64,000 bases of DNA from a virus (Duplodnaviria > Heunggongvirae > Uroviricota > Caudoviricetes), in the IMG/VR virus record IMGVR_UViG_3300021255_004328; one strand, 5' to 3'. Below the pieces are notes generated by a model. It saw nothing but the letters and a program-made list of their open reading frames with translations. It had not been told where the DNA came from and searched no databases. How positions within the stretch are numbered: position 1 is the first letter of the stretch; the number at the start of each line of letters is the position of its first letter. The position numbers and the translations under genes are program-made. Positions 9,390 to 40,478 of this stretch are shown piece after piece.

Positions 9390-10697
9390 TTATTTGTTAG
9401 CTGCCATTCTCCAAGCAATTTCGCCATTAAGGCGGCTGATTGCTGCAGGATTGCGGCACATATTCTTCCCAGGTGCATCACTGAGTTTAGCAACATCCAA
9501 ACCATTTACGATTGCAACTTTACATACGATGTTAAGAGCATCGATACCCTGAGGTCCAGACCAATCAGTTCCGATACCGAATGCAACCTTTGCCTTACCC
9601 TTGAAGTACTTATTGATTTCAGTTGCCTTCTGAAGATTGAGACCGTCACTGAACATCAAAGTTTTTGTCATAGGGTCAATTCCCAAGCTCTTGTAGTGAG
9701 CAATCATCTTTTCGCCCCAAGCGTAAGGGTCACCTGAGTCGTGGCGAACACCGCTGAACAAAGTTGCAAATGTTTTTTGGAAGTCTTTCAAGAAAACATC
9801 TGTTCCGATTGTATCAGTAAGGGCGATACCATTCATTGTTCCGTATTCTTTAACCCAAGCATCAAGGGCAAACCAGTTGCTGTAAGCAGGGTTGTGGTAA
9901 AGGTGTCCCTGGCCGACTGTCATAATGAACTCGTGAGCCATTGTGCCGACCGCAGTAATGCCATACTTCTTTGCAAGATACATATTTGATGTACCGATGA
10001 AGCCCTGAATTGGACCGATTGCATTCTTCTTTTTCTCTTCAACAAGGCGGCCAATCAACCAATCCTGAAGTTCGAAAGATACACGGCGACGAGCACCAAA
10101 CTCAGAGAAAATCCCTGGTGCATAAATGCCTTCGCGCATAAAGCGAAGCTTCTCTTCAGTCTTTTCCTTGAAGTCTTTTGCAAGCTTTTCGTAATCGTAG
10201 TGATTGCGGTAATAAGTTTCTGCGGCAATTTCAAGAATTGGGATTTCATAGAAAGAAACTTTCCACTGAACGCCTTTTGTATGGATTGCAAGGCCTGTAA
10301 CTGGGTCATCTTCAACAGTGATTTCTTCAATGTGAGGACGCCAATCGCGGATTGTTTCAATGTAGTTGTGATGAATCCAAGGACGCTTTTCAGAGTCACA
10401 AAGCCAAGAAAGTTCATCTTCATCATAGCGGAGGGCGCAGAATGCTTTCAACTGATTGACAATCTCTTCGCGGTCTGCGGCTGTATATTTTTCGTGAGTT
10501 GTGCCTTCACCAACATTGCGGGCTTTGAAATCCCAAGTTGCGTGGTCGCTGCTGAACTGATGCAAATAACACTGACGCATACTGTCTTTGTACTGGTCTG
10601 TGTCAAGCAAGCTTTTACACATAGGCGGGTACTTAAGTCCGAATGCTTTTACAACTTCTGCTTCATCTGCAGTAAGTTTTCCGTTAATTTTCCACAT
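9390..10697 (-). CDS. pncB: nicotinate phosphoribosyltransferase, PncB-type NAPRTase
   Basis: SLLDTDQYK at the N-terminus, FSEFGARRRVS and GTMAHEF match the PncB signatures LLDTDxYK, DFGTRRR and GTxAHE. The NAMPT alternative was considered and judged less likely. Confidence 0.65.
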   Translation of the reverse strand: MWKINGKLTADEAEVVKAFGLKYPPMCKSLLDTDQYKDSMRQCYLHQFSSDHATWDFKARNVGEGTTHEKYTAADREEIVNQLKAFCALRYDEDELSWLCDSEKRPWIHHNYIETIRDWRPHIEEITVEDDPVTGLAIHTKGVQWKVSFYEIPILEIAAETYYRNHYDYEKLAKDFKEKTEEKLRFMREGIYAPGIFSEFGARRRVSFELQDWLIGRLVEEKKKNAIGPIQGFIGTSNMYLAKKYGITAVGTMAHEFIMTVGQGHLYHNPAYSNWFALDAWVKEYGTMNGIALTDTIGTDVFLKDFQKTFATLFSGVRHDSGDPYAWGEKMIAHYKSLGIDPMTKTLMFSDGLNLQKATEINKYFKGKAKVAFGIGTDWSGPQGIDALNIVCKVAIVNGLDVAKLSDAPGKNMCRNPAAISRLNGEIAWRMAANK

Positions 10698-11316: not shown

Positions 11317-11351
11317 TATAATATAAAAGAGTTTTGATTAAAGTTTATTTG
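11317..11351 (-). promoter_or_regulatory. Family-A promoter, variant -35 ATAAAC
   Basis: The minus-strand sequence is CAAATAAACTTTAATCAAAACTCTTTTATATTATAAA. Confidence 0.5.
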
Positions 11352-12420
11352 TATCGTAAAAATTACAGTTTCCGTGAAAAATACTTTTGAATTCAGCTTC
11401 ACGGTCAAGTTCATCACAATGAGTAACTTCTACTGTAAATCTTTTAATATGATGCATTGCGACTTCTTTTTCACATCTTTGTTTCAAATCTGCCAAATCA
11501 AGATAATCATAGAAGAAGTCGTGTTGCCATTCGTTATATTGATTAACTTCTGTTGACTTATTAAGGTCACAGTCAAGTTTATGTCCAACAAAAGTATCAG
11601 AGCCGTGACGAGTAATATAAGGTCGTGTTACGAAATGAACATTTGCATCTTTCAAATCAATGTATGATGGCAATCCTGTGTTTGAAGGTGTTGCTTCTTT
11701 ATCATCAAAACCTTTATCACCTAAAAGAAGACCTTGTCCATTTTCAATAATAAAGTGTTGTGATTGAAGTTTTGAAGCCAAGTTTAAGAATGACGGGCTA
11801 ACTTTGCAACATTCAAACATTGACATAGAGTCTCTTATGAAATGCTCAATAAGAAAGTCAGAATACCAAGGCGTTCGATATTTTGGGTTGATTTTAATCT
11901 TTCTTACGCCTTCATAATAATCGCGGATCTTTTTAAGAAACTCAACTTGTTCATCGTGAGGACGAGCTGCAAAACTATCAAAGTCCATATACACACCATT
12001 ACGATAACGAAGTACAGTTTCCCAAATGCCCATACCGCAAGAGCCTGTCCACTTTTCTTTTTGCAACATTTGATTTGCCATTATGTCCCAAGGAGTAACC
12101 CACTTACAAGATGCAGAACGACAAGCTATAGGCTCAATACCGTAAACTTTTTTAATTTCTTCTTTTTCATTATTGAACTGAATAGGGTCAAGAATAAAGT
12201 CTGGGCTGAAAAATGTTCGAACACCTAAAGGAGTTGCAGAATTGAAGTGTTTGAAAATATGCTGCTTTCCGTCGTATATTACAGAGTGTCCTCTTTGAGC
12301 GCCGCCATTGCCCATAATAACAAAAGTTTGTCTTGGGTCATACTGCTTTGCAATACGAGCAACTGTGAGGCCTTTTCCTTCATCTCCGTAATTTGCGCCA
12401 ATTACAACATCAATACTCAT
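11338..12420 (-). CDS. adenylosuccinate synthetase family protein, short archaeal/PurZ-like form of 360 aa
   Basis: GANYGDEGKGLTV is the P-loop GDEGKGK motif. GHSV matches the conserved GHT(V/L). It is about 70 aa shorter than bacterial PurA. Confidence 0.75.
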   Translation of the reverse strand: MSIDVVIGANYGDEGKGLTVARIAKQYDPRQTFVIMGNGGAQRGHSVIYDGKQHIFKHFNSATPLGVRTFFSPDFILDPIQFNNEKEEIKKVYGIEPIACRSASCKWVTPWDIMANQMLQKEKWTGSCGMGIWETVLRYRNGVYMDFDSFAARPHDEQVEFLKKIRDYYEGVRKIKINPKYRTPWYSDFLIEHFIRDSMSMFECCKVSPSFLNLASKLQSQHFIIENGQGLLLGDKGFDDKEATPSNTGLPSYIDLKDANVHFVTRPYITRHGSDTFVGHKLDCDLNKSTEVNQYNEWQHDFFYDYLDLADLKQRCEKEVAMHHIKRFTVEVTHCDELDREAEFKSIFHGNCNFYDTNKL

Positions 12421-15138: not shown

Positions 15139-15942
15139 TTAACATTTTGCTACCCTATCGAAAGCATCAGGTATAAATTCTTCAAGAGCAGAAGGCATTT
15201 CAATAAGTTTGTATTTTGTGTTAGGATTGTGATGCATAGTAACAATCTTTCTGAAAAGTTCTTCAGACTTTGGAGGGAGACCTGTTAAAATAAATGTATC
15301 AAGTGTTTCATAGTCGAAGCCCATATTGTCTTCGTCACTCTTTCCACACATACCGTCTGAAGGCGTTTTGTGAACAAGGTCAGTCGGCAGCTTCATATAA
15401 TCGCCAAGGGCAACAACTTCAGTTTTTGTAAGTCGATTGAGAAGAGAGAAGTCACCTGCAGCATCGCCGTATTTTGTACTGTAACCTACATAGTCTTCAG
15501 ACTTGTTACAAGTGTTGCAAACAAAACCACCGTAAAGAGCAGCTATGCTGTAAAGAGTAACCATACGAAGGCGGGCAGGAGTGTTTGTTGTGTAGAGCTT
15601 TGGTATTTCATCACCTTCATACCAATCGCCAATTCTTGATGTAAGGTCGTTGTACATACCTTTTATGTTGATTTCAACGCTGCGAAGGCCGAGAATATCA
15701 ATAACTTTTTTGCTGTCGGAGATGTCTGCCTGTTCTCCGTTCGGCATCATAACACCAATTACCTTTTCAGGACCAAGAGCTTCAGCGAGAAGAGCAGCAC
15801 AGATTGTTGAGTCTTTTCCGCCACTGATACCAATTACTGCAGGGCCTTTCTTATCTTTGAAAAAGTTTTTAATCCAAACGATAATCTTATCGTGAATGTC
15901 CTTCATTCTTTCTTCAGTTGTAAAAGTATCAAAGCTAGTCAT
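15139..15942 (-). CDS. nadE: NH3-dependent NAD+ synthetase NadE
   Basis: VIGISGGKDSTICAALL is the SGGxDS PP-loop motif. The 267-aa length and overall NadE pattern fit. Confidence 0.75.
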   Translation of the reverse strand: MTSFDTFTTEERMKDIHDKIIVWIKNFFKDKKGPAVIGISGGKDSTICAALLAEALGPEKVIGVMMPNGEQADISDSKKVIDILGLRSVEINIKGMYNDLTSRIGDWYEGDEIPKLYTTNTPARLRMVTLYSIAALYGGFVCNTCNKSEDYVGYSTKYGDAAGDFSLLNRLTKTEVVALGDYMKLPTDLVHKTPSDGMCGKSDEDNMGFDYETLDTFILTGLPPKSEELFRKIVTMHHNPNTKYKLIEMPSALEEFIPDAFDRVAKC

Positions 15943-21988: not shown

Positions 21989-23479
21989 TTAACAACCTTT
22001 TACGATTTTGTAAATTGCCTCAGCGTCAGTCATATCCTTATCAATCTGCATCTTTAATGCAACATCTAAGATATGCTTAAACTTTGGCCCAGGCTTTCTG
22101 CCTTTGCCAATCAGGAAGTCTCCTGTAATAATTGGCTTTGGCATTGGCTTTCCAATTACTGACTGTATCATAGGCTTTTCCAGAGATTTCTCTATTCCAA
22201 CCCAAGCGTCAGTAACACTTTTGATACAAGCAGTCTCATCAGCTTTTGCTAACATAATCAGTTTATCGAAAACCGGATTTGAAGTAATCTCCCAAACTGC
22301 CTTCTTTGATTTCATATCACCTAACTGATGGGCTCGCATATGTAAACGAACCAGCTCACGAACTGTTTCGCTGTCATCGTTTGTCATACCGATACTTTTG
22401 CAAATATCGTATGCGATAGGCGCACCGTCAACATCGTGACTTGAAACCTTAGGAATTGTCTCGGTAAACTCTTTGCTTCCAATTTTGAAAGTATTTGTTT
22501 TCATTCCTAAAGTTGAATGAGCCTTACCAATGTCGTGTAAGAAAGCAGCCATCATCATAACGAAGCGAGTATGCTCATCAAAGTCTTTTGATAACTCTGC
22601 CATCTTTTTCATAACGATTAAAGTATGGTCCCAAGCAGTTCCGTGTGCCTTAGGTGTTAAGTTTGTAAAATCTACAATTTCATCACCCTTAAACTCTTTA
22701 CCGTTGTCGTCAACCCAGATTGAACCCTCAGAGTGCCACATCCAAGACTGAGCAACATTTCGCAGGTCAACCATAATTGAAGTCAGTCCTAAAGGAGTTA
22801 AAACTCTTGCTGCTAAAACAAACTCCCAAGTATCTGGGAATAAGAACTTACCTGCAAAAGTTTTTTCCAATTCCTTCAACTGTCTTTCAGCAGAAACTTC
22901 AGTAAAAGAAAAATTCCAATCGAGAACTTCTCTTTTTGTGTAAGCTGATTTGAAACCTTTTGAAGCAAGGAAACGAACAAAACGGAAAACTCTTAATGGG
23001 TCTTCATTGATGCGGTCCTGAGCATTTCCAACAAAACGTAATGTTCTGTTTTTGATGTCCTGAGCGCCGCCAACCATATCAAAGATAAAACCGTCAATAT
23101 CCTCGTAAAGGGCATTCACAGTAAAATCTCTGCGTTCAGCATCTTCCTTGATGTCACGAGTAAACTCGATTTTTGGATGTCGTCCTTTTGTAATGTCCTT
23201 GCGGAGAGTTGCAATTTCAACTTCTTCAAACTTTCCGTCAATTTCAATCAGCGGCATCGTAACACCGAACGGCTCACTGTTGCTTGAAACATTTGAAAAC
23301 TTATTGAAGATTTTGTGCAGTTCTTCAGGAGTAGCAGTTGTGCAAATATCATAATCGTGAGGCTCAACGCCCATCAAAAAGTCACGAACACAACCGCCTA
23401 CAAAGTAAGCTTTGAACCCAGCTTCGTTGATAGGATTGAGGACCTTTGCTTTATACTGATCTTTAATTGTCATAGTCAA
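21989..23479 (-). CDS. CCA-adding tRNA nucleotidyltransferase (class II pol-beta head) with a C-terminal HD domain
   Basis: GGCVRDFLMG and DYD form the head domain. RRDFTVNAL is present. The HD motif is FLHDIGKAHS. Confidence 0.75.
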   Translation of the reverse strand: MTMTIKDQYKAKVLNPINEAGFKAYFVGGCVRDFLMGVEPHDYDICTTATPEELHKIFNKFSNVSSNSEPFGVTMPLIEIDGKFEEVEIATLRKDITKGRHPKIEFTRDIKEDAERRDFTVNALYEDIDGFIFDMVGGAQDIKNRTLRFVGNAQDRINEDPLRVFRFVRFLASKGFKSAYTKREVLDWNFSFTEVSAERQLKELEKTFAGKFLFPDTWEFVLAARVLTPLGLTSIMVDLRNVAQSWMWHSEGSIWVDDNGKEFKGDEIVDFTNLTPKAHGTAWDHTLIVMKKMAELSKDFDEHTRFVMMMAAFLHDIGKAHSTLGMKTNTFKIGSKEFTETIPKVSSHDVDGAPIAYDICKSIGMTNDDSETVRELVRLHMRAHQLGDMKSKKAVWEITSNPVFDKLIMLAKADETACIKSVTDAWVGIEKSLEKPMIQSVIGKPMPKPIITGDFLIGKGRKPGPKFKHILDVALKMQIDKDMTDAEAIYKIVKGC

Positions 23480-23488
23480 TCCTCCTTA

Positions 23489-23529
23489 CAATAATAATAT
23501 AAAGAGGTATGGAAGAAAGTTTAATTTTT
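23489..23529 (-). promoter_or_regulatory. Family-A promoter
   Basis: The minus-strand sequence is AAAATTAAACTTTCTTCCATACCTCTTTATATTATTATTGT. Confidence 0.6.
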
Positions 23530-24012
23530 GTTGAAAAAGCGGCCGAAGCCTGTTGAAAAGTCTACTTTTTTATTTTTATCAGTTTCTTCTTTTTCAATTC
23601 GTTTTTCTGCAGCAACGCAAGCATCATCGTAATTATAATTATCAGAAAACTCGTAACATTCTTTGTAAAGTGCATTACCTTGATGAAGATTTATTGCAGG
23701 AACCCCAAGAGGCTCAAGACGACTTCTCGCAATCTCAAGGATTTCTGGGTCGAGTTCAATCCCATAAACTTCTTTAGGATCTTCTCCCGCCATAATCGCT
23801 GCTGCAAGAAGATTACCTGCCCCGCAAGTTGGGTCAAGAATGGAGCCTTCAAGATCTTCAAACTTTTCAAGCATTTTGATAGATAATTCAGCTGGTGTAA
23901 AAAACTGCCCGAAGTCTTGACGCTCTGCCAATGTTTTGTTGGCATACATCTTATCTTTCCACTGATTATATTCGTTGATAATTGCTTCTTTCTGATTGTC
24001 GTTTAACTGCAT
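23521..24012 (-). CDS. N6-adenine (or N4-cytosine) DNA methyltransferase, AdoMet-binding half with motifs X and I
   Basis: FGQFFTPAEL is motif X. DPTCGAGNLL is motif I (FxGxG). There is no NPPY in this ORF. Confidence 0.6.
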   Translation of the reverse strand: MQLNDNQKEAIINEYNQWKDKMYANKTLAERQDFGQFFTPAELSIKMLEKFEDLEGSILDPTCGAGNLLAAAIMAGEDPKEVYGIELDPEILEIARSRLEPLGVPAINLHQGNALYKECYEFSDNYNYDDACVAAEKRIEKEETDKNKKVDFSTGFGRFFNKN

Positions 24013-24026
24013 AAAAATATATTAAC

Positions 24027-24293
24027 TTATGGCACAAAGATTTTCAAATTGTCATCTATTCTGAAGTTTGAGTCTACTATTATGAAACATTGTCTTGTCG
24101 GCATTATACAGTTGCAGGCTACTTCTCTACCTTCAATACTTGTGATCTTACGAGTAACTTTATTAGTGCTATTACAAAACTGAAATATCAAGTCGTCCTT
24201 TTCCAACTTTGTTATATAGCCTTCGTTATATAGCTTTTCAAGAAAAGCAGAAATTTTATCTATCACTTTTATACTCAACAATAAAGTTGTCAC
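24027..24293 (-). CDS. hypothetical protein, 88 aa
   Basis: ORF lying between the two methyltransferase halves. Confidence 0.4.
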   Translation of the reverse strand: MTTLLLSIKVIDKISAFLEKLYNEGYITKLEKDDLIFQFCNSTNKVTRKITSIEGREVACNCIMPTRQCFIIVDSNFRIDDNLKIFVP

Positions 24294-24645
24294 CTTTGTG
24301 TTTGTTTATCCAATCTGCAACAAGATGTCTGTGACAAAAGTCAGCAGGCTTTTCGTAACATAAAAGAATTACTTTGTCAAGCTCTACGCCTGATAAGTTC
24401 GCAAGATCTGTCAAAACACTTTCAACTGTAAGAGGAGCCAACACCTGTGCATCAAACTGACTGATATAATATTCGTTGTCTCCTTTATGTGAACCATACT
24501 TCCATTCACTGAAGAAAGACCACTTTGGAGCAAGTTTCTTATATTCCAAGCCGTCATACCAATCGGGTGCTTTACCTGAGATGGAGATTGGAGTAAGTCC
24601 TGCTTGTTGATAGTCGCGTAACTTTGCAAAGTAACCTGTGAACAT
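24256..24645 (-). CDS. DUF488-like protein
   Basis: VILLCYEKPADFCHRHLVADWI resembles the DUF488 LLC..CHR core. Confidence 0.35.
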   Translation of the reverse strand: MFTGYFAKLRDYQQAGLTPISISGKAPDWYDGLEYKKLAPKWSFFSEWKYGSHKGDNEYYISQFDAQVLAPLTVESVLTDLANLSGVELDKVILLCYEKPADFCHRHLVADWINKHKGDNFIVEYKSDR

Positions 24646-25361
24646 TATCCTACCTCCTGCTCTATTTCTTTTATTTCCTCAGGTGTCAATCCGAAGTATT
24701 CATACAACTTTTTATCCGTCCACTGATGTGTGCAAGGCACTACAGGGACAAACTGCCACGGCACCCTCTGATTTACTCTTACCTCTTTTGCAAAAGCATT
24801 CATAAGTTTTGAACTCAAATAAGAAAACATTGCTTGTCGTTCTTGTTCTGTATCAAAGAACAAAACTTTATTTGTGTTAGTGTAACGGGCTTCACAAAAG
24901 AGCTTATAGTCGTTTTTGATAAAATGTTCTATGTCACCATAATGAGAGTTGATAATGCCAAATATGCCTTTATATTCACCTCTCCAACCCTCTTCTGTTG
25001 CAATATCCATTATAGACTTGTCGGCTGCTTTCTGAAGTATTTTATCAACAAAAGACTTTCTCTTATTTATATCGTCTCTCCAACCACCGTTCTCTGTGAT
25101 ATGATAAATACCTAAGTCACATCGAAAATTTATGCCGAAAACTTTATCTGCTTCAGCAGCGCTTACGACTTCAAGACTTTCGATATGGCTTCTTATATTA
25201 GCAAACTTCTCCCAGTCACTGTTCTTTTTGTATTCAGCCAGAGGATCCTGCAGCCATCTGATAGGAGATATATTCACAACATCATCACTGTGCTTCATTG
25301 CCTCTTGAAGGATCTTTAGGTGGAGATTACCATTATAAGGAGGATTCATTATAATATGCAC
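24645..25361 (-). CDS. DNA methyltransferase catalytic half (motif IV NPPY at the N-terminus) plus target-recognition region
   Basis: The N-terminus is MHIIMNPPYNG. It has a GTG start with AGGAG 8 nt upstream. A TGA stop sits 2 codons upstream of the GTG. Confidence 0.6.
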   Translation of the reverse strand: MHIIMNPPYNGNLHLKILQEAMKHSDDVVNISPIRWLQDPLAEYKKNSDWEKFANIRSHIESLEVVSAAEADKVFGINFRCDLGIYHITENGGWRDDINKRKSFVDKILQKAADKSIMDIATEEGWRGEYKGIFGIINSHYGDIEHFIKNDYKLFCEARYTNTNKVLFFDTEQERQAMFSYLSSKLMNAFAKEVRVNQRVPWQFVPVVPCTHQWTDKKLYEYFGLTPEEIKEIEQEVG

Positions 25362-25454: not shown

Positions 25455-26474
25455 CTAATAAATTTTCTTATTATTGTACCAAACTTGATGTCGGCCGTTA
25501 TTTTTTGCTTTGTAAAGATTTTTGTCTGCTAAGCTTATAAGGTCATTTGACTCTTCTGAAAAAGCCGCGCCAATTGAAACACTCAACTTTTCGCCTTGTC
25601 TTAAGCAGAAAGTAAGCTCAAGGTCTTCCCAAATCATATCAAGTCGTCCAAGGAAGTCGTCTTCTTCGCTGCGGCAAAGTATCAAAAACTCTTCTCCGCC
25701 AAAACGATACACACGAAAGTCGTCTGTTACATATCTTAATAATGATTGACTTAACTGCTGCAAAGCTCTATCGCCTGCTTTATGTCCATAAGTATCATTG
25801 ACTTTTTTGAACCAGTCAATGTCAATCATAGCAGCATACTTATAAAGTTTAGTGTCAAGGTCCTGCTGCATTTTATATCTGTTGTAAACTGTTGTAAGTT
25901 GGTCGTGTTCTGCTTCTTTGTTTAATCTTCTGTTTGCTTCACTAAAAGCTTTAAGCGTAAGAGAAACAACGACTGCTGAGAACAAATATGTTGATATAAT
26001 TGCACCAAGATACTTTTGATAATCAAAATCTGTGTTAATCTTTAACACAACTGTGTTAAATGTATTTTTTAGTATTATTGCAGACACATACTCTAATAAA
26101 ACTACTATGCCTAAAATAACAGAATTTTTCCAATTACTTATTGATAGTAAGCCTATCGCAGTTCCCATCATAGGAAGATAAAACATAAAGATGCTATTTC
26201 GATTTGTCAAAAAAATAATTGGGAAGTATATCGCTGCAGTTACAACAACGATAGCATTTATAAACTTTGTATAAGCTTTTCTCTTAAAGAAAAAACACGC
26301 AAAGATAATAATACTGAAGAGGCTGAATGAAGTGGCAATAATACTGATTATATTATCTAAAAGCAAACCTTCACTATAACAAATGAGTATTTGAAAAATA
26401 AGTCCTATGGTATTAGCCAAGATACCTGCCCCACAAGTGGAAAATGCGAGGTACTTGTTCAACTTCTCTGTCAT
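25455..26474 (-). CDS. membrane-anchored GGDEF diguanylate cyclase with 5-6 N-terminal TM helices
   Basis: DQLTTVYNRYK, DIDWFKKVND, RFGGEEF, SVSIGAA and ADKNLYKAKNNGRH. The full set of DGC catalytic motifs is present. Confidence 0.8.
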   Translation of the reverse strand: MTEKLNKYLAFSTCGAGILANTIGLIFQILICYSEGLLLDNIISIIATSFSLFSIIIFACFFFKRKAYTKFINAIVVVTAAIYFPIIFLTNRNSIFMFYLPMMGTAIGLLSISNWKNSVILGIVVLLEYVSAIILKNTFNTVVLKINTDFDYQKYLGAIISTYLFSAVVVSLTLKAFSEANRRLNKEAEHDQLTTVYNRYKMQQDLDTKLYKYAAMIDIDWFKKVNDTYGHKAGDRALQQLSQSLLRYVTDDFRVYRFGGEEFLILCRSEEDDFLGRLDMIWEDLELTFCLRQGEKLSVSIGAAFSEESNDLISLADKNLYKAKNNGRHQVWYNNKKIY

Positions 26475-26481
26475 TTTCTAT

Positions 26482-28209
26482 TTAGTTACAAAATCCTATC
26501 CTTGAACTGCCTTCGTTTCCTAGTTTTTCTTTCTTACAGAAATCAAGCAATTCATCTACACTAGGCATCTTACCGTAGAGTAGGTAATCGATTTCTGACT
26601 TGCGATAAATGTTATCAATCTGTCCGCCTGATAAGTCATAGCGTTCAGCCAATTTTGTGGCATCATTGTCGTCAAGCCAGTTCAAACGGTCTTTCCAAAT
26701 TTTCACCTTAACAGGCACGTTCGGATTTTCGAACTTCAATTTGAAAAGGAGTCTTCGGTCAAACGCAGAGTCAATGTCTGTGGCGCGGTTAGTCGTTGCA
26801 ATAAAGATACCGTCAAACTTTTCAAGTTCTTCAAGAAGCAAGTTTTGAATTGCATTCTCCATTTTTGTTACCGCTGCATTTGAACCGTCTACTGATGTTC
26901 TTTTTGAGATAATTGCATCAGCCTCATTGAAAAGAAGTATAGGCTTAATCTTTGCTTTTGAGGCATAATAAGATTTGAAGATTGCCTTGATGTTCTTTTC
27001 ACTTTCACCCACCCAACAACTTTTTATTTGTTCAATGTTCAAATGATACACATCGCGTCCTGTCTTTCTTGCGAGCTGCATAACTGTTTCAGTCTTACCT
27101 GTCCCAGGTGCTCCGTATAAAAGTACTGTAAGGCCTTTAGGTAATCCCTTTTCATCAAGACGCTTTCTCAATTCAAGGTAATTTTCTTCCTTCATAATAC
27201 TTTCAAGACGTTCAATGTCTTTTTCATTGGACTCATTGTAATATAAGTTTTTTGACTTAATGTCCTTAAATTCAATCTTCTGTAATTCTTTGCCTGAGCT
27301 TTCCTGAAGCAACAAGTCTTCGTAGCCCTTAAATGCTTCAAGAACTCTAGGTCCCCATACAACTTCAATGTTGTCAGCGATGTCAGTCTTATCCAATTCA
27401 AAGTATTCTCTCTTAATAAGAACTGACTTTTCTGTTTTTATTTCATTAAGTTCATAGATAATGTCGTTTGTTGAAACATCATAATCAGAAAGCACACCTT
27501 TTACTGATGCTGTCTTTTCAGTCCAAAGCTGACGAGCAAGCATACAAAAGTAGAGGAAAATTTTCCAATCGCCGCAAGGGTCAATTACGATAATGTCATT
27601 GTTATCAACATCCACCTCTTCACAGCCTCTTCCTTTAGGACCCATATCAACTAAGTCACTTACAAGTTTTTTAACCCAAGGGTCCTTCATATAAGGCGCA
27701 ACGTGGTGAGACATACTGTACTTTGAACGCAGCATTCTTTTAGGAAGATTGTAAAGTGATGAAACAAAGTCAACTGCATTGTAAATTTTGTCTGAATATG
27801 TTGGCTTATAATCTTCAATTGGCTTGTTATAAGTTATCAAGTCAATAAGCTCTTCGTCTACTGTAAAAGCAGTCCATCTGTCAACTTTTTGATACTTAGG
27901 GTCAAACTTAATTTTGTCTCTTAAGCAGAAGAGACCTCTTTTGAGCAGATTTTCGATTGTAGGAATATAAGAAAGAGTCTCTGTCATTGAAACATCGACA
28001 TCACGGTTAATATCTTCAAGCGTAAAATAAGAACAACTTTCTTCAATCTTTCTGTAAGTAAAATAAGCAAAAAGAACTGCTTCTTCCTTATCAACGTGGA
28101 AGTACTCCATAAGTTGAGTAATCTCTTTTGAGTCAGGAATTTCGATTTTATTCTTACGATAAACAGTCATACAAACTTTGTTTATCGCAGAGAAAGTTGT
28201 TGCACCCAT
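26482..28209 (-). CDS. AAA+ ATPase with a classic AAA C-terminal module and an N-terminal domain of unknown function of about 340 aa
   Basis: LLYGAPGTGKT is Walker A. ILLFNEAD is Walker B. TTNRATDIDSAFDRR is the SRH region. Confidence 0.8.
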   Translation of the reverse strand: MGATTFSAINKVCMTVYRKNKIEIPDSKEITQLMEYFHVDKEEAVLFAYFTYRKIEESCSYFTLEDINRDVDVSMTETLSYIPTIENLLKRGLFCLRDKIKFDPKYQKVDRWTAFTVDEELIDLITYNKPIEDYKPTYSDKIYNAVDFVSSLYNLPKRMLRSKYSMSHHVAPYMKDPWVKKLVSDLVDMGPKGRGCEEVDVDNNDIIVIDPCGDWKIFLYFCMLARQLWTEKTASVKGVLSDYDVSTNDIIYELNEIKTEKSVLIKREYFELDKTDIADNIEVVWGPRVLEAFKGYEDLLLQESSGKELQKIEFKDIKSKNLYYNESNEKDIERLESIMKEENYLELRKRLDEKGLPKGLTVLLYGAPGTGKTETVMQLARKTGRDVYHLNIEQIKSCWVGESEKNIKAIFKSYYASKAKIKPILLFNEADAIISKRTSVDGSNAAVTKMENAIQNLLLEELEKFDGIFIATTNRATDIDSAFDRRLLFKLKFENPNVPVKVKIWKDRLNWLDDNDATKLAERYDLSGGQIDNIYRKSEIDYLLYGKMPSVDELLDFCKKEKLGNEGSSRIGFCN

Positions 28210-28210
28210 T

Positions 28211-28342
28211 TTATTTTTCCTTTTTGTTAATTAGATATTCAAAGAGTAAGCTTAAAATAACTACAGTAATGACAACGACTGAACTTACAACTTTGTAATT
28301 CCAGCCGAAGTGACTACATAACATTCCAAGTGGTGAGTCCAT
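28211..28342 (-). CDS. micro-ORF of 43 aa encoding a single-TM peptide
   Basis: The sequence MDSPLGMLCSHFGWNYKVVSSVVVITVVILSLLFEYLINKKEK. It is packed tightly between two genes with 1-nt junctions. Confidence 0.35.
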   Translation of the reverse strand: MDSPLGMLCSHFGWNYKVVSSVVVITVVILSLLFEYLINKKEK

Positions 28343-28845
28343 TAAAGTTCCTTTTCAACTACAAGGTCGTGAGACTTAAGAATGTTAAGCACGCCTTCAA
28401 GGCAGTATGTTTTCTTCTTAAACCAATCTTCTTTTGGCAATTTGTCGTTGTTGTGTGTATAAGGACTTTTACCATTGTCCCAAGAAGCCCACCCAATGTA
28501 ATCAGCGTAATTTGGTCCCAGAGTCTTCAAAAACCCTACAACTTCATCAAGCACTTCAACGAGAGGCGGAGCATAAAAAGTTGCGTGGCTTGCAGAATAT
28601 GAACTTGAAGAAAAATAATCAATAAGTCCACCTCTAAGGGCAAACCGTTTGTAGCCTTTCGCCTGTGCTTCCTTATAAGGAATACAATAAACTTGACAAG
28701 GATTTCCGCAGCTTTCCAAAGCAGTGCTTAAAATACTAAACTTCTTTACGCCGCCATAAACTTTCTGCAGCTCCTTTGTTGATTTATATACTTTTCTTAC
28801 GCCGCCAATCTTTTCAATCTCGGCAAAAATCTGTGATTCTGTCAT
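28342..28845 (-). CDS. hypothetical protein
   Basis: ORF. Confidence 0.5.
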   Translation of the reverse strand: MTESQIFAEIEKIGGVRKVYKSTKELQKVYGGVKKFSILSTALESCGNPCQVYCIPYKEAQAKGYKRFALRGGLIDYFSSSSYSASHATFYAPPLVEVLDEVVGFLKTLGPNYADYIGWASWDNGKSPYTHNNDKLPKEDWFKKKTYCLEGVLNILKSHDLVVEKEL

Positions 28846-31172: not shown

Positions 31173-32810
31173 TTATTCACTTTTTGTGTTCTTTGCTGTT
31201 TTTGTTGCAGCATCGATAGCAGCACCAAGTTCTTTGCCTGCGAGTTTACCTGCGAGCATTGATGATACAACTCCACCAAGGTCGATACCAAGTGAGTCTT
31301 TCAAGCCGCTTGCAACCTGTGTGATTGTCTTTGTGATGTTGCCTGTAAGCATTTCACCACTTGAGCCGTCTTTTCCGCCACCATAGATTGTAACGTTTCC
31401 AACTTTGCTCCAAGGTTCTGCTGCAGCTCTTGCCATTTCAGGCAACTGTGTAAAGAGAACTTTCAAAGTATCAAGTTCCATCTGCATCTTAGCAGCATCG
31501 CCATACTGCTTCATAGCTTCAGCCTTTTCTTTCAAACCTTCTGCCTCAGCAAGGGCCTTCTGTTTGATACCGTCTGCTTCAGCAAGCAACTTTGCTTTTA
31601 CTGCGGCAGCTTCAGCTTCACCCTTTGCCTGAATGGCTTCAGCAAGAGCTTTCTGACCTTCGGCTTCTGCAACCTTTGCTTTCTTTTCAGCATCAGCTTT
31701 TGCAATCAAAGCTTCAGCAGACTTTTCCTGTTCATACTTTTCAGCTTCAGCTTTCTTCTGAAGAGTAATAAGATCTGCTTCCGCATTGCGTTCGCGTTCA
31801 ATCTTTTCAGCCTCAGCAGCCTTTGTTCTTTCGTAAAGTTCAGCATCAGCCTTTGTCTGTGCAGCATACTTTTCAGCATCAGCTTGCTTCTTGATTTCGG
31901 CATCAAGGGCTTTTTCCTTGATTGCGATTTCCTGATCCTTCAACTCAGTCTCTTTTTCAAGACGGGCGATTTCGGCATTCTGCTTTGTGATTTCGATTGT
32001 CTTACGCTGTGTTTCTTTTTCGATAGCACCTGCAGCTTCAGACTTTGCAACTTCCTTCAAGCGGGCAGCTTCGAGTTCAGCTTTACGAACTTCAAGAGCG
32101 TTGTTCTTTTCAGCGATTGCTGTATCTGCTGCAACCTTTGCATCGTTTGCTTCCTCACGAGCTTTTGCTTCTGCAACAGCAACTTCCTTGTTGGCATTTG
32201 CCTTTGCAATAGAAGCATTCTTCTGAATTGTTGCGATGTTGTCGATACCGAGGTTGTTGATTACACCCTGCTCGTCGCTGAAGTTCTGAACATTGAATGA
32301 TACAATCTCGAGACCCATACGGTCCAAGTCAGGAACGGCATTCTGCTGAACAGCTTCCGCAAAAGTTTTACGGTCGTTCATCATAGCCTTCAAAGACATT
32401 GTTCCAACAATTTCACGCAAGTTACCTTCAAGAACTTCGCGGGCGGTTGCATTGATGTCGCGGGCGTCTTTATTCAAGAAGTGCTGTGCAGCTTTGGCCA
32501 AGGCATCTTCGGAAGTTCCAATCTTGATGTTTGCAACAGCATCAACTGAAATGTTGATACACTCTGCAGTAGGAACAGCTTCCTGTGTCTTTACATCGAC
32601 AGAAATCAAATCAAGGGTAAGTTCATCTTTACGTTCAAGGAATGGGATACGGAAACCAGACTTACCGATAACTTTACGGGCGGTCTTTCTCAAACCTGAA
32701 ATAACGTAACACTTGTTTGTTGGCGCTTTGAAGTAACCAACAAAGAACATAATCATAAGGAGAACAAAAAGTGTTGCTCCTCCTACAATCGCAAATACCA
32801 TCATTTGCAA
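31173..32810 (-). CDS. flotillin/SPFH (band-7) family membrane protein
   Basis: An N-terminal TM helix, an SPFH-like domain, and a roughly 250-aa Ala/Glu/Lys coiled coil with EA repeats, as in FloT/YqiK. Confidence 0.7.
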   Translation of the reverse strand: MQMMVFAIVGGATLFVLLMIMFFVGYFKAPTNKCYVISGLRKTARKVIGKSGFRIPFLERKDELTLDLISVDVKTQEAVPTAECINISVDAVANIKIGTSEDALAKAAQHFLNKDARDINATAREVLEGNLREIVGTMSLKAMMNDRKTFAEAVQQNAVPDLDRMGLEIVSFNVQNFSDEQGVINNLGIDNIATIQKNASIAKANANKEVAVAEAKAREEANDAKVAADTAIAEKNNALEVRKAELEAARLKEVAKSEAAGAIEKETQRKTIEITKQNAEIARLEKETELKDQEIAIKEKALDAEIKKQADAEKYAAQTKADAELYERTKAAEAEKIERERNAEADLITLQKKAEAEKYEQEKSAEALIAKADAEKKAKVAEAEGQKALAEAIQAKGEAEAAAVKAKLLAEADGIKQKALAEAEGLKEKAEAMKQYGDAAKMQMELDTLKVLFTQLPEMARAAAEPWSKVGNVTIYGGGKDGSSGEMLTGNITKTITQVASGLKDSLGIDLGGVVSSMLAGKLAGKELGAAIDAATKTAKNTKSE

Positions 32811-37670: not shown

Positions 37671-40478
37671 TTATTTGTACCAAACATCCACATCGTGCAT
37701 CTCGTGGAAGAAGCGATTATTGTCGATTGTATGAGGATGAATATGAGAAAAGTAATTAAACTTAAATCTTTTTTCAGGATTAAGAATATGTTCGTAAGCA
37801 GAACGTCTTAAAACCTGTACATCAGGAGATTCATCATCAACAACAATAAAGCCGTCATCACAATAAAGATTAGAGACTTTATAAGGGTCAAGTCCTATAT
37901 CAATTGCAGCTGGGTAATTGCTTTTAATGTTTGTTGGGAACCATATTCTCCAATTATTATTTTGTTTGAATGTGTCCCAGAAAATGTTTGCATAATTAGG
38001 ATTTTCATTTAAGTAAAGATTATCAACATCAGTAAGTTCTTTACAATCAAAGAATACATTATCATTGTTTCCATTAAGCAATAATTTGAGATCCTTTACT
38101 GACTGAAGGCCACTGTCTTTGAATAAGCTATGAATATCTTGAACACTATCTGGGAAATAGAAATAGCCATCTTTTGTAACAGGGTTAACCCAATCTTTTA
38201 TCCGACCGCTGCCTGAATGGAATGTATAATTCTGATAATGCATAGATGAATTCGGCTGCAACCAATTACCTTCAACATCAACAAGATTTTCACAATCAGC
38301 AAAAGCTTCTGCAATTGTTTGAATTCTTTCTGGGAATATCGCTTCCTTAATATGCTTTACTTTTGAGTTTTTGAACACTTTATTGCCATTTAATACTGAA
38401 TGCCAATTCTTAAAGAATGATGGGTCAACAATTCCTGAGTTTTCAAAAGCGCTTTCAGCGTCAGATGTATCAACAATAAAGTCAAAATGAGGATCTTCAA
38501 TGAATGCGCCATCAAAGATATGTTTAGCACTTTCAACAGGCTCATCACCATTTGTAATGGAACCTACAGCAGACTCAAGATTCTTACAATTCATAAATAA
38601 GTTGTCAGCTTTTGATATTTTGTTTCTGTTAAAGTTGATGGACTTAATATAAGGAACATCTTTGAAAGCATCACTTATATCTTGAGGAGGACAATCACTG
38701 TCATTTAAGTAAACATTAAAAGGAACTTGTATTGTTCTTGTGTGGTCAGGGTGATTTGCATCTCCACTCCAATCAGCAACCCAATCAATATAAGACTCAG
38801 CAATATCTTTATTATAAGTGTAAGTTGTCATTTGTGGGCGGTTCCCAGTTTTAGGAGGGTTGTTTGGATTTGCACCTGGAGTCGATGGTCCTCCTTTAGG
38901 TCCGCCTTCTGCATAATATGTACTTACAGGCTGTCCATAGCCGGAATTTGTGAGGCCATTAGTAATGTATGAACGGTCAGGATATGTAAGTTGTATAGGA
39001 ATACTTTCTTTAGCTACAGGGCTGAGAGTCCAATATCCGTAAGTTCTATCTGTTGGGGGATTCCAATTATATTTATCTCTCGTATCATAGTAGGTACTTG
39101 TAATCCACTTTACACTTTTTCCTTGGCCAAGATTATGTCCTAAGTCATATGAGTTCCAATTTTCATCGTGATATGTTGCAGCAAAAACAGGTCCAACATA
39201 TGACTCTTTTGCAATAGTTTTTCTCCAAAAAGTTTCTTGGTGATGGTGAGGAATCCAATATCTTTCTGCAATGTCAACGGGCTTCTTAACATAAGCTGTA
39301 ACATCAAGATTTATAATGTTCAAACGGAAGTTATCATCAGGGTCCCATATAGGAGATATAATATCATTAAGCTTAGGTCCGTTATGTTGTGCATTTAATA
39401 TAACAGATGTTGTAAGTTCGAGTTCTTTATCAACAGTATTTTTGAAGGCAGCAAAATCCCAAATGTCTTTAATGTTATATAAAAGATTTTGAATGCCTTT
39501 TACTTTATCATCATAATTGTCAGTGATAGTAATCTCTGGGTCAGGGTCAGCAGGACGATTTGGGCCCGCTGCATATACTAAAGTTGAGTATTCAGTCTTA
39601 AACTCAGTATTATCAAAATGAAGCTTAATTAAGTTTGAGGCGCTACTATCAAAAAAGTTGATATTTGATTTTATACTTGCGTCTTTGTTTATTGTGTAAT
39701 TATATGTATCAAGTTTATCGTCCAAATTTATAGCATTCAAAACTTTAGGTATGAGATCATTAGGATTGAAGCCTAATGATTTTTGATATGTATAAAGGTC
39801 TTCACTTGTTATTTTCGAAGCAAGAAACTCAGGGAGTGTACCATTATAAGGACAGTCCCAAAAGTATGTTCTGTTTAAGCCATCGTGCCAATCATTTTTA
39901 ACGCCAATTGACATAAGCATTTTTACAACGCCATCGTCTCCAAGACTTTTTGCAAAATGACGGTCGTAACTGAAAATGTAATCACAATTGTTTGCCTGTA
40001 AAAAAGAAGGTGAAATTACATCTTCAAGAAGTTCACAATTTGCAAACATTTCACGAGCATCTGTTAAGTGATTGCTACCTGCAAATCTTACATATTGTAC
40101 TTTGCTTCCTTTGAACATTCTTGCGGCACTGCCTGCCTGCGTGCCTCTTAAAGTTACATACTTAATGTTTTTTGTATCTTTATAAATATCATCTTCTGCT
40201 TTATTAACAATCAAGTCAACTATCGAGTTGCTGCCTTCTATCTCATCTTTAACGCTGTTATCACTTGCATAAATAGGCACAGGAACATCAGGCTTTTCAT
40301 TATAAGCAATATCCAATAAAGACACCAATTCAGGCTTAGCATTATCATATTCATAGCTATCACTGCTGTCAGTAATATCAGATGTAACATTTTGTAAAGT
40401 GTTTTCTTTTAGGTTTACAGTCTCTTCCCCGATTTTATAAATGCCTCTTCCTTTAATTGCTATCGTTAACTGTGCCAT
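37671..40478 (-). CDS. large BspA-type leucine-rich-repeat (LRR_5) protein; candidate tail fibre or receptor-binding protein
   Basis: Repeated F..C..L..V LRR units such as MFANCELLEDV, LFMNCKNLESAVGSI, AFADCENLVDV and FFDCKELTDV. Confidence 0.55.
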   Translation of the reverse strand: MAQLTIAIKGRGIYKIGEETVNLKENTLQNVTSDITDSSDSYEYDNAKPELVSLLDIAYNEKPDVPVPIYASDNSVKDEIEGSNSIVDLIVNKAEDDIYKDTKNIKYVTLRGTQAGSAARMFKGSKVQYVRFAGSNHLTDAREMFANCELLEDVISPSFLQANNCDYIFSYDRHFAKSLGDDGVVKMLMSIGVKNDWHDGLNRTYFWDCPYNGTLPEFLASKITSEDLYTYQKSLGFNPNDLIPKVLNAINLDDKLDTYNYTINKDASIKSNINFFDSSASNLIKLHFDNTEFKTEYSTLVYAAGPNRPADPDPEITITDNYDDKVKGIQNLLYNIKDIWDFAAFKNTVDKELELTTSVILNAQHNGPKLNDIISPIWDPDDNFRLNIINLDVTAYVKKPVDIAERYWIPHHHQETFWRKTIAKESYVGPVFAATYHDENWNSYDLGHNLGQGKSVKWITSTYYDTRDKYNWNPPTDRTYGYWTLSPVAKESIPIQLTYPDRSYITNGLTNSGYGQPVSTYYAEGGPKGGPSTPGANPNNPPKTGNRPQMTTYTYNKDIAESYIDWVADWSGDANHPDHTRTIQVPFNVYLNDSDCPPQDISDAFKDVPYIKSINFNRNKISKADNLFMNCKNLESAVGSITNGDEPVESAKHIFDGAFIEDPHFDFIVDTSDAESAFENSGIVDPSFFKNWHSVLNGNKVFKNSKVKHIKEAIFPERIQTIAEAFADCENLVDVEGNWLQPNSSMHYQNYTFHSGSGRIKDWVNPVTKDGYFYFPDSVQDIHSLFKDSGLQSVKDLKLLLNGNNDNVFFDCKELTDVDNLYLNENPNYANIFWDTFKQNNNWRIWFPTNIKSNYPAAIDIGLDPYKVSNLYCDDGFIVVDDESPDVQVLRRSAYEHILNPEKRFKFNYFSHIHPHTIDNNRFFHEMHDVDVWYK

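Follow-up and report, generated by a model that had tools for sequence, protein, structure and literature searches.

Membrane sensor-GGDEF cyclases are among the commonest signalling proteins of bacteria, and the protein analysed here is a relative of theirs that is encoded by a phage. It lies in a stretch of 64,000 nucleotides (64 kb, hereafter the window) from the virus record IMGVR_UViG_3300021255_004328 (Caudoviricetes). The original prediction for this stretch, made from its letters, had placed a 43-amino-acid (aa) hydrophobic open reading frame (ORF), a 575-aa AAA+ ATPase and a membrane GGDEF gene side by side, and all three ORFs were recovered where it had placed them, on the minus strand. 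We give slightly better than an even chance to the reading that the last of these, a 339-aa protein, is a competent canonical diguanylate cyclase, that is, a synthase of cyclic di-GMP (c-di-GMP), which is gated by a six-helix input, lacks the I-site and serves as an accessory host-takeover gene of a phage of about 300 kb. The gene and its parts are as follows (TM, transmembrane).

25455-26474, minus strand: gene of a predicted 6-TM sensor and GGDEF diguanylate cyclase, 339 aa (ORF; PF00990; TIGR00254; phrog_5594, E 3e-40)
25488-25913, minus strand: GGDEF catalytic domain, residues 188-329, with the GGEEF A-site at 25686-25700
25935-26474, minus strand: six-helix N-terminal membrane module, residues 1-180, putatively for sensory input

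The closest described architectures are those of Escherichia coli AdrA/DgcC (MASE2) and DgcN/YfiN and of staphylococcal GdpS (5TMR-LYT), which share with the window protein a multi-helix membrane N-terminal half, a single GGDEF domain assigned to the cytoplasm and the catalytic residues. The NCBIfam models for DgcN, AdrA and GdpS cover the GGDEF part or most of the window protein, with scores far below their cut-offs; unlike these three, however, the window protein is phage-encoded, has no I-site and carries a 6-TM module that belongs to no Pfam family and is found in about 100 clusters. Among solved structures, the best matches are PleD, WspR and the Leptospira-type DgcR (6zxb/6zxc/6zxm, 1w25, 3bre; E 7e-19 to 4.5e-12), with which the residues are in register. 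These enzymes are soluble, activated by phosphorylation and product-inhibited at an RxxD motif, whereas in the phage protein the input is membrane-borne and RxxD is missing.

GGDEF proteins have also been annotated in Bacillus phage SP-15 (SP15_150, 'diguanylate cyclase'), Bacillus phage G (gp350), Acetobacter phage phiAX1 and Microcystis phage MaAM05, and gp350 is listed as a probable cyclase (PMC12484599). The likeness to our protein is that these are phage-encoded GGDEF domains, several of them in jumbo phages; identity is only 28-37% and is confined to the GGDEF domain. The protein of SP-15, a Bacillus jumbo phage, is a 183-aa soluble stand-alone domain within a glycosyltransferase cluster, while the window protein carries a 6-TM sensor. 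Seven PHROG families, phrog_5594 and 14602 among them, match the GGDEF domain, and so do 78 records of the phage collection, some of which are bacterial contigs; the original prediction that phage c-di-GMP synthases are very unusual is thus too strong. Phages can also tamper with c-di-GMP indirectly, as in the case of a phage peptide whose binding partner is the host cyclase YfiN (PMC8085984). What is new in the present case is the 6-TM input family without a Pfam model, the loss of the I-site, and the occurrence of related genes on several large phage-like contigs.

Catalytic domain and membrane module of the cyclase

The GGDEF protein matched PF00990 over residues 188-329 (E 1.1e-29; 103.7 bits, cut-off 23.8) and TIGR00254 (E 3.5e-30; 104.9, cut-off 37.4). 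Its motifs read D191-Q-L-T, D218-I-D220, F-K-K-V-N226-D, G-H-K-A-G-D235, G259-G-E-E-F263 and L-Y-K-A-K324-N-N-G-R328-H, so that the catalytic motifs noticed at the outset (GGEEF, DxLT, KxxD and YxAK) are all present, and only the C-terminal GRN has to be amended to GRH. In an alignment of 21 full-length GGDEF relatives with 27-92% identity (alignment A1), the invariant positions are D191 and T194 of DxLT, N198-R199, D218-I-D220, F222, N226, G230-H231, G234-D235, R257, the whole of G259-G-E-E-F263, S300, G302, D317, K324 and G327. R328 is nearly invariant, being kept in at least 90% of these relatives; together with K324 it forms the phosphate-binding Lys/Arg pair of the C-terminal motif. The nearest relative that is both named and full-length comes from a Treponema sp. 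metagenome-assembled genome (MAG), with 27-29% identity.

HMMER alignments place the cyclase residues in register with those of solved 6zxb/6zxc/6zxm, 5llw, DosC, DgcZ, WspR and PleD. In particular, D218-I-D220, the strand with the metal-binding Asp, and the guanine-specifying N226 and D235 align with the NDTYGHxxGD of 6zxb and 5llw; the PleD equivalents of N226 and D235 are N335 and D344. The Glu residues of GGEEF, whose catalytic register had been put forward beforehand as the point on which the idea of a cyclase would stand or fall, occupy at sequence level the same register as in the solved cyclases. Consistent with a maintained function, the catalytic half gave dN/dS values of 0.07-0.12 against the related genomes L001 and L002, a mark of strong purifying selection, and the whole gene 0.11-0.24.

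With regard to the product, work from Hallberg and Hammond reportedly defines the Hypr, cGAMP-producing (cyclic GMP-AMP) GGDEF proteins by a Ser/Thr that replaces the guanine-specifying Asp of GHxxGD. This Ser/Thr is absent from the window protein, where the canonical Asp, D235, is present and invariant in the 21 relatives, and the protein is therefore not expected to be Hypr; the suggestion that it might make a non-canonical dinucleotide finds no footing at this residue. Nor is there an RxxD I-site, which would stand five residues upstream of GG(D/E)EF: the four residues at -9 to -6 relative to GG are T-D-D-F, and the same positions hold RKSD in solved 6zxm and RKDD, RKED or RKND in the relatives P0129-P0132. 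Since D235 is kept and RxxD is missing, we predict that the protein is a canonical c-di-GMP synthase without allosteric product inhibition.

The membrane half was examined by a hydropathy scan, which found six hydrophobic segments between residues ~10 and 177, the upper figure of the 5-6 helices first proposed. A Pfam search that included the known integral-membrane sensors (MASE1-8, 5TMR-LYT) gave no match to this half, only a sub-threshold one to DUF6419 (19.7 bits, cut-off 27). Conserved residues within it are G24, F84-P85 and Y99. When a profile of residues 1-182 (alignment A4) was run against 1.84 billion representative proteins, only 100 clusters were retrieved at E <= 1e-3, mostly of proteins of 320-365 aa. 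Ten of these clusters were sampled for their outputs: five have GGDEF alone, two GGDEF-EAL, and three are hybrid histidine kinases (HisKA-HATPase_c-REC, one of them with PAS). A single membrane module joined to various signalling outputs is the classic sign of a sensory input domain, and because one rare module is here fused to several such outputs, we read it as a probable sensor and not a mere anchor.

The distribution of charges fits a topology with both ends inside. We counted, from the sequence, about 11 Lys/Arg in the N-terminus, loops 2-3 and 4-5 and the stretch after TM6, and about four in the other loops; by the positive-inside rule the protein would be N-in/C-in, which would place the GGDEF domain in the cytoplasm. 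The stretches most divergent from L001 are residues ~27-40 and ~137-158, both in predicted outer loops. For the TM half, dN/dS is 0.17-0.40, and dS against L002 reaches 1.6, where neighbouring genes show 0.5-0.6; this inflation suggests that the TM half has been exchanged by recombination.

Genome setting and the neighbouring ATPase and micro-ORF

Practically all ORFs of the window are on the minus strand and tightly packed throughout, and GC skew is steadily negative along its length. A unidirectional gene order has been called unusual in gut jumbophages (PMC11839480). Phage-type genes found by PHROG, Pfam and NCBIfam include the helicase phrog_2488 (E 3e-118), DNA methyltransferases, a homing endonuclease and ThyX. 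No close DNA relatives were found among GenBank phages. Genes of the window recur on two IMG/VR viral contigs, one of 189 kb and one of 62 kb, with 97% and 92% identity for the ATPase and 82% and 73% for the GGDEF protein. Because the exact GGDEF protein occurs on four contigs, two of them of the 0.2-1 Mb class, and a mate of its cluster on a contig of 301,296 bp, the source of the window is a jumbo phage of about 300 kb.

The two genes that precede the cyclase gene in this genome, and the regions of the ATPase, are listed here.

26482-28209, minus strand: AAA+ ATPase gene, 575 aa (ORF; PF00004; phrog_3757)
26530-27192, minus strand: classical-clade AAA module, residues ~340-560 (PDB profile search)
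27295-28209, minus strand: ATPase N-terminal region, residues 1-305, predicted as two winged-helix-like modules joined by helices
28211-28342, minus strand: single-TM micro-ORF, 43 aa (ORF; hydropathy scan)

The ATPase matched PF00004 over residues 362-493 (E 2.5e-24; 86.6 bits, cut-off 21.2), and a hydropathy scan found no TM segment in it. The AAA module has a Walker A (GAPGTGKT), a pore loop at W399-V-G401, a sensor-1 at N474 and Arg fingers at R485-R486. The Walker B reads LLFN428E429AD, with the catalytic Glu retained and Asn in place of Asp, a substitution that is unusual in classical-clade AAA proteins; N428 is invariant in 46 members of the family, phage and cellular (alignment A2), and aligns with the Asp of IDEID in the VCP-like ATPase. 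A profile of the family run against the PDB gave the D2 domains of VCP-like, CDC48 and AFG2 proteins as best matches (E 1e-31). With the D2 of VCP/CDC48/AFG2, with Vps4/CdvC and with IetA/IteA, the window ATPase has in common the Walker A, the aromatic-hydrophobic-Gly pore loop, sensor-1 and the Arg fingers; it differs from them by a single AAA module preceded by two winged-helix-like modules, by the Walker B Asn and by the lack of an IetS-type partner. The N-terminal region, at first called uncharacterised, is predicted to fold confidently into the winged-helix-like modules, while a BFVD fold search with the full model returned generic AAA matches only.

The ATPase belongs to a family of at least 50 clusters, whose full-length members, 34-97% identical to it, were found on contigs as long as 335 kb and on cellular contigs as well; dN/dS is 0.07-0.10. 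It is a conserved gene in a clade of large phages, and the data go no further than a putative role as a protein or nucleoprotein remodelling motor. An assignment to the anti-phage ATPase IetA/IteA was considered and rejected: the PADLOC IetA models match the AAA part only (E 2.5e-25), the score against NCBIfam NF042959 is 77.9 with a cut-off of 510, and no IetS protease gene is nearby. Cellular homologues of the C-terminal half adjoin AAA_14/DUF4143 genes. In two unrelated bacterial contexts, the gene with AAA_14 and DUF4143 precedes the ATPase homologue (L015 4320-5579 and L018 4138-5415), and the two may be a two-gene system; L015 looks like a defence island, as Cas1/Cas2 and a PemK toxin gene are close by.

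The micro-ORF encodes one TM segment and is preceded by an AAGGA Shine-Dalgarno-like motif, and its start codon shares bases with the stop codon of the gene before it (TAATG). A similar open frame is kept in both L001 and L002, and independent gene callers also called the micro-ORF; its dN/dS of ~0.5 comes from very few sites. A 40-aa counterpart with the same TM segment and an EY[LFI]I[NQ]K tail immediately precedes the ATPase gene of L102 and that of L012, whose ATPases are 63% and 56% identical to the window ATPase, and was absent upstream of the ATPase in L011, L007, L008 and L009. In both L012 (2189-2344) and L102 (533-688) the 40-aa micro-ORF is itself preceded by a second small TM ORF, of 51 aa (...FPYEWFDGNNFTFIFCAAV...CCSKKLRSKFF), which the window lacks. 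In three distant relatives a peptidoglycan hydrolase gene adjoins the ATPase on its upstream side, with Amidase_2 in L007 and L011 and SLT in L008. A lysis cassette, with the 167-aa ORF at 28342-28845 as endolysin and the micro-ORF as holin, was considered and rejected, as the 167-aa ORF resembles neither those amidases nor any PDB chain.

The stop of the micro-ORF is separated from the ATG of the ATPase by 1 nt, and the stop of the ATPase from the ATG of the GGDEF gene by 7 nt (ATAGAAA), one fewer than first counted. The block of micro-ORF, ATPase and GGDEF gene is kept in the window, L001 and L002 despite indels in both flanks. However, adjacency of ATPase and GGDEF gene was found only at an ATPase identity of at least 92% (92-97%). 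No GGDEF neighbour was present at six other ATPase loci (L102, 63%; L011, 57%; L012, 56%; L007, 50%; L009, 45%; L008, 42-43%), and no ATPase neighbour at three GGDEF loci of other phage-like contigs (L013, 44%; L103, 36%; L014, 33% identity). The order in L011 is ATPase, an 84-aa ORF and then the CCA-adding enzyme. L012 and the window have seven genes in common, and the L012 ATPase runs straight into homologues of the window genes at 19320-17213; the GGDEF gene therefore lies in an accessory segment of about 7 kb, missing from L012, that also holds methyltransferases, DUF488 and the CCA enzyme. Consensus scans found no convincing promoter or terminator that would delimit the trio; the one strong terminator in the vicinity, at 31147-31130, stands ahead of a long run of genes. 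Since the distant relatives of each lack the other as a neighbour, functional coupling of ATPase and cyclase is not supported. Of the operon first proposed there remain the tight same-strand packing and the pairing of micro-ORF and ATPase down to 56% identity; a unit of ATPase and GGDEF gene is not supported, their adjacency being limited to close relatives.

Proposed role of the cyclase and rival explanations

Taking the cyclase as a gene that acts on its own, we hypothesise the following course. It would be made during infection and inserted in the inner membrane of the host with both ends in the cytoplasm, where it would dimerise and, upon a membrane or extracytoplasmic cue, turn two GTP into c-di-GMP. 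The c-di-GMP network of the host would then be shifted to a high-c-di-GMP state, with less motility, more matrix and an altered surface; candidate outputs are motility arrest, matrix production, a change of receptors or surface, and superinfection exclusion. The cyclase would do this independently of its neighbours, having been inserted by chance beside a conserved ATPase and its small TM partner. The window yielded no effector or phosphodiesterase for c-di-GMP and no riboswitch, and the downstream targets are accordingly assumed to be those of the host. We regard host reprogramming as the most reasonable role for such an enzyme. The protein offers a clean case for testing, with intact catalytic residues, no feedback site and a rare sensor module that histidine kinases also use, and an effect on motility, matrix, receptor display or superinfection would explain why large gut or rumen phages synthesise a second messenger. 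The practical gain would be modest, as there is nothing out of the ordinary in chemistry or architecture, and the tie to the ATPase, which had suggested a new system, is unsupported.

Several observations weigh against this proposal. GGDEF proteins with intact motifs may be inactive or may require some signal. The absence of effectors and phosphodiesterases from the window is itself one such point; a search of the 64 kb for Rfam RNAs, the c-di-GMP riboswitch included, gave 0 hits, and PilZ, MshEN and HD-GYP motifs were not found in the window ORFs by regular expressions, which are a crude test. A functional study of any phage GGDEF protein was not found in the searchable literature. The retention of the three-gene block in three genomes could mean functional linkage and not recent descent. 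Finally, the host is only hinted at. For the GGDEF protein, the C-terminal half of the ATPase and the flotillin-like protein nearby, the closest named relatives among cellular organisms come from Treponema or Spirochaetaceae MAGs, and the related phage contig L007 carries a gene for the spirochaete flagellar sheath protein FlaA; these hints point to Treponema/Spirochaetaceae, with Lachnospiraceae as the alternative, whose flotillins score as well as those of Treponema for the window flotillin-like protein.

If the block is indeed more than shared descent, the micro-TM peptide, the ATPase and the cyclase could be one module, in which the ATPase remodels or activates the cyclase, or c-di-GMP controls the ATPase, and the peptide tethers the ATPase to the membrane. 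The gaps of 1 and 7 nt on one strand, the constancy of the block in the window, L001 and L002 where the flanks vary, and the co-occurrence of micro-ORF and ATPase down to 56% ATPase identity are what such a module would give. Yet tight packing is the rule over the whole window, the genomes with the block are close relatives (ATPase 92-97%) for which shared descent may suffice, a GGDEF neighbour is missing from all six distant ATPase loci and an ATPase neighbour from all three distant GGDEF loci, and no known c-di-GMP-binding motif was noticed in the ATPase, which was checked by eye and by regular expressions only. We hold the module to be improbable. Less improbable, although still rather unlikely, is that the cyclase serves in conflict between phages or with host defence, by remodelling the surface against superinfection or by interfering with cyclic-nucleotide immunity. 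The predicted extracytoplasmic loops change fastest in the gene and dS is inflated there, as with recombination or diversification, and the gene sits in a variable accessory segment along with DNA methyltransferases; a precedent is that surface glycans dependent on c-di-GMP govern phage adsorption in E. coli, as shown for phage N4 (PMC8669472). However, the sequence has no feature specific to this role, PADLOC gave no match for the GGDEF protein, the dN/dS of the TM half is below 1, and a conflict role would be a sub-case of the host-takeover proposal with the same enzyme chemistry.

The remaining rivals concern what the protein is and where it comes from. Its GGDEF domain might be a degenerate receptor, or a Hypr-type or other non-canonical cyclase, in keeping with the GRH that replaces the common GRN and with a weak, sub-threshold likeness of some family members to GdpS- or GdpP-type GGDEF; but with the A-site, metal, base and phosphate residues all present and invariant, D235 conserved where Hypr would have Ser/Thr, and the catalytic half so strongly constrained, this is very improbable. 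Even harder to credit is a region of bacterial chromosome or an inert prophage remnant with the cyclase as an ordinary host gene. Membrane GGDEF proteins are indeed very common in bacteria and the nearest named full-length relative is the Treponema sp. protein; against this stand 64 kb of one-strand genes that include the helicase phrog_2488, a homing endonuclease, a PurZ-like protein, ThyX and nicotinamide adenine dinucleotide (NAD) salvage genes, the close relatives on IMG/VR viral contigs, and a scan of 185,579 reference genomes with generic GGDEF patterns that gave no close match, the best hits being 26-40% identical, spread over many phyla and mostly confined to the GGDEF domain. A bolder extension of the host-takeover proposal, which we consider a long shot, is that a lineage of jumbo phages has kept through long divergence (down to ~33% identity) a feedback-free gated cyclase whose fast-evolving outer loops would sense the state of the host envelope or competing phages, so that c-di-GMP would be a decision signal of the phage for lysis timing, superinfection block or host immobilisation, maybe together with the adjacent winged-helix AAA+ motor and the micro-protein.

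Other genes of the window and of related contigs

Within the accessory segment, two minus-strand ORFs match separate portions of phrog_11371, the 238-aa one at 24645-25361 positions 7-91 and the 163-aa one at 23521-24012 positions 275-326. The 163-aa ORF has the motif region of an S-adenosylmethionine-binding N6-methyltransferase, and a DUF488-N3a gene (24256-24645) and an 88-aa ORF lie between them; the two may be a methyltransferase split by insertion. The CCA-adding tRNA nucleotidyltransferase (496 aa, PolyA_pol and HD) is encoded at 21989-23479, minus strand, and despite this enzyme ARAGORN found no tRNA genes in the 64-kb window.

About 5 kb from the cyclase, at 31173-32810 on the minus strand, is the gene of the flotillin-like protein, of 545 aa, with SPFH/Band 7 and Flot domains. 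It is thus a further gene of membrane organisation close to the membrane cyclase. Many related contigs share it at 69-98% identity, and among cellular organisms the first named relatives belong to Treponema sp. (52%) and Lachnospiraceae (50-53%).

The PurZ homologue, of 360 aa (11338-12420, minus strand), matches phrog_1211, '2-aminooxy adenylosuccinate synthetase' (E 6e-28), with weak similarity to purA, and its copy in L012 is 44% identical. The presence of this gene hints that the phage may swap adenine for 2-aminoadenine, the Z-DNA base. Two genes of NAD+ metabolism, for a nicotinamide phosphoribosyltransferase-like protein (phrog_448) and an NAD synthetase (phrog_11189, E 8e-50), are at 9390-10697 and 15139-15942, both on the minus strand.

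Among the related large phage contigs, a eukaryotic-type topoisomerase IB (Topoisom_I), FlaA and a Sequestin-family protein are encoded (L009 9251-10951, L103 1460-2251, L007 276-1088 and 8045-8287). At 37671-40478, minus strand, the window also encodes a protein of 935 aa whose leucine-rich repeats are of the BspA type (LRR_5); L009 and L014 have LRR_5 proteins like it, and the window protein may act in host recognition or surface binding.

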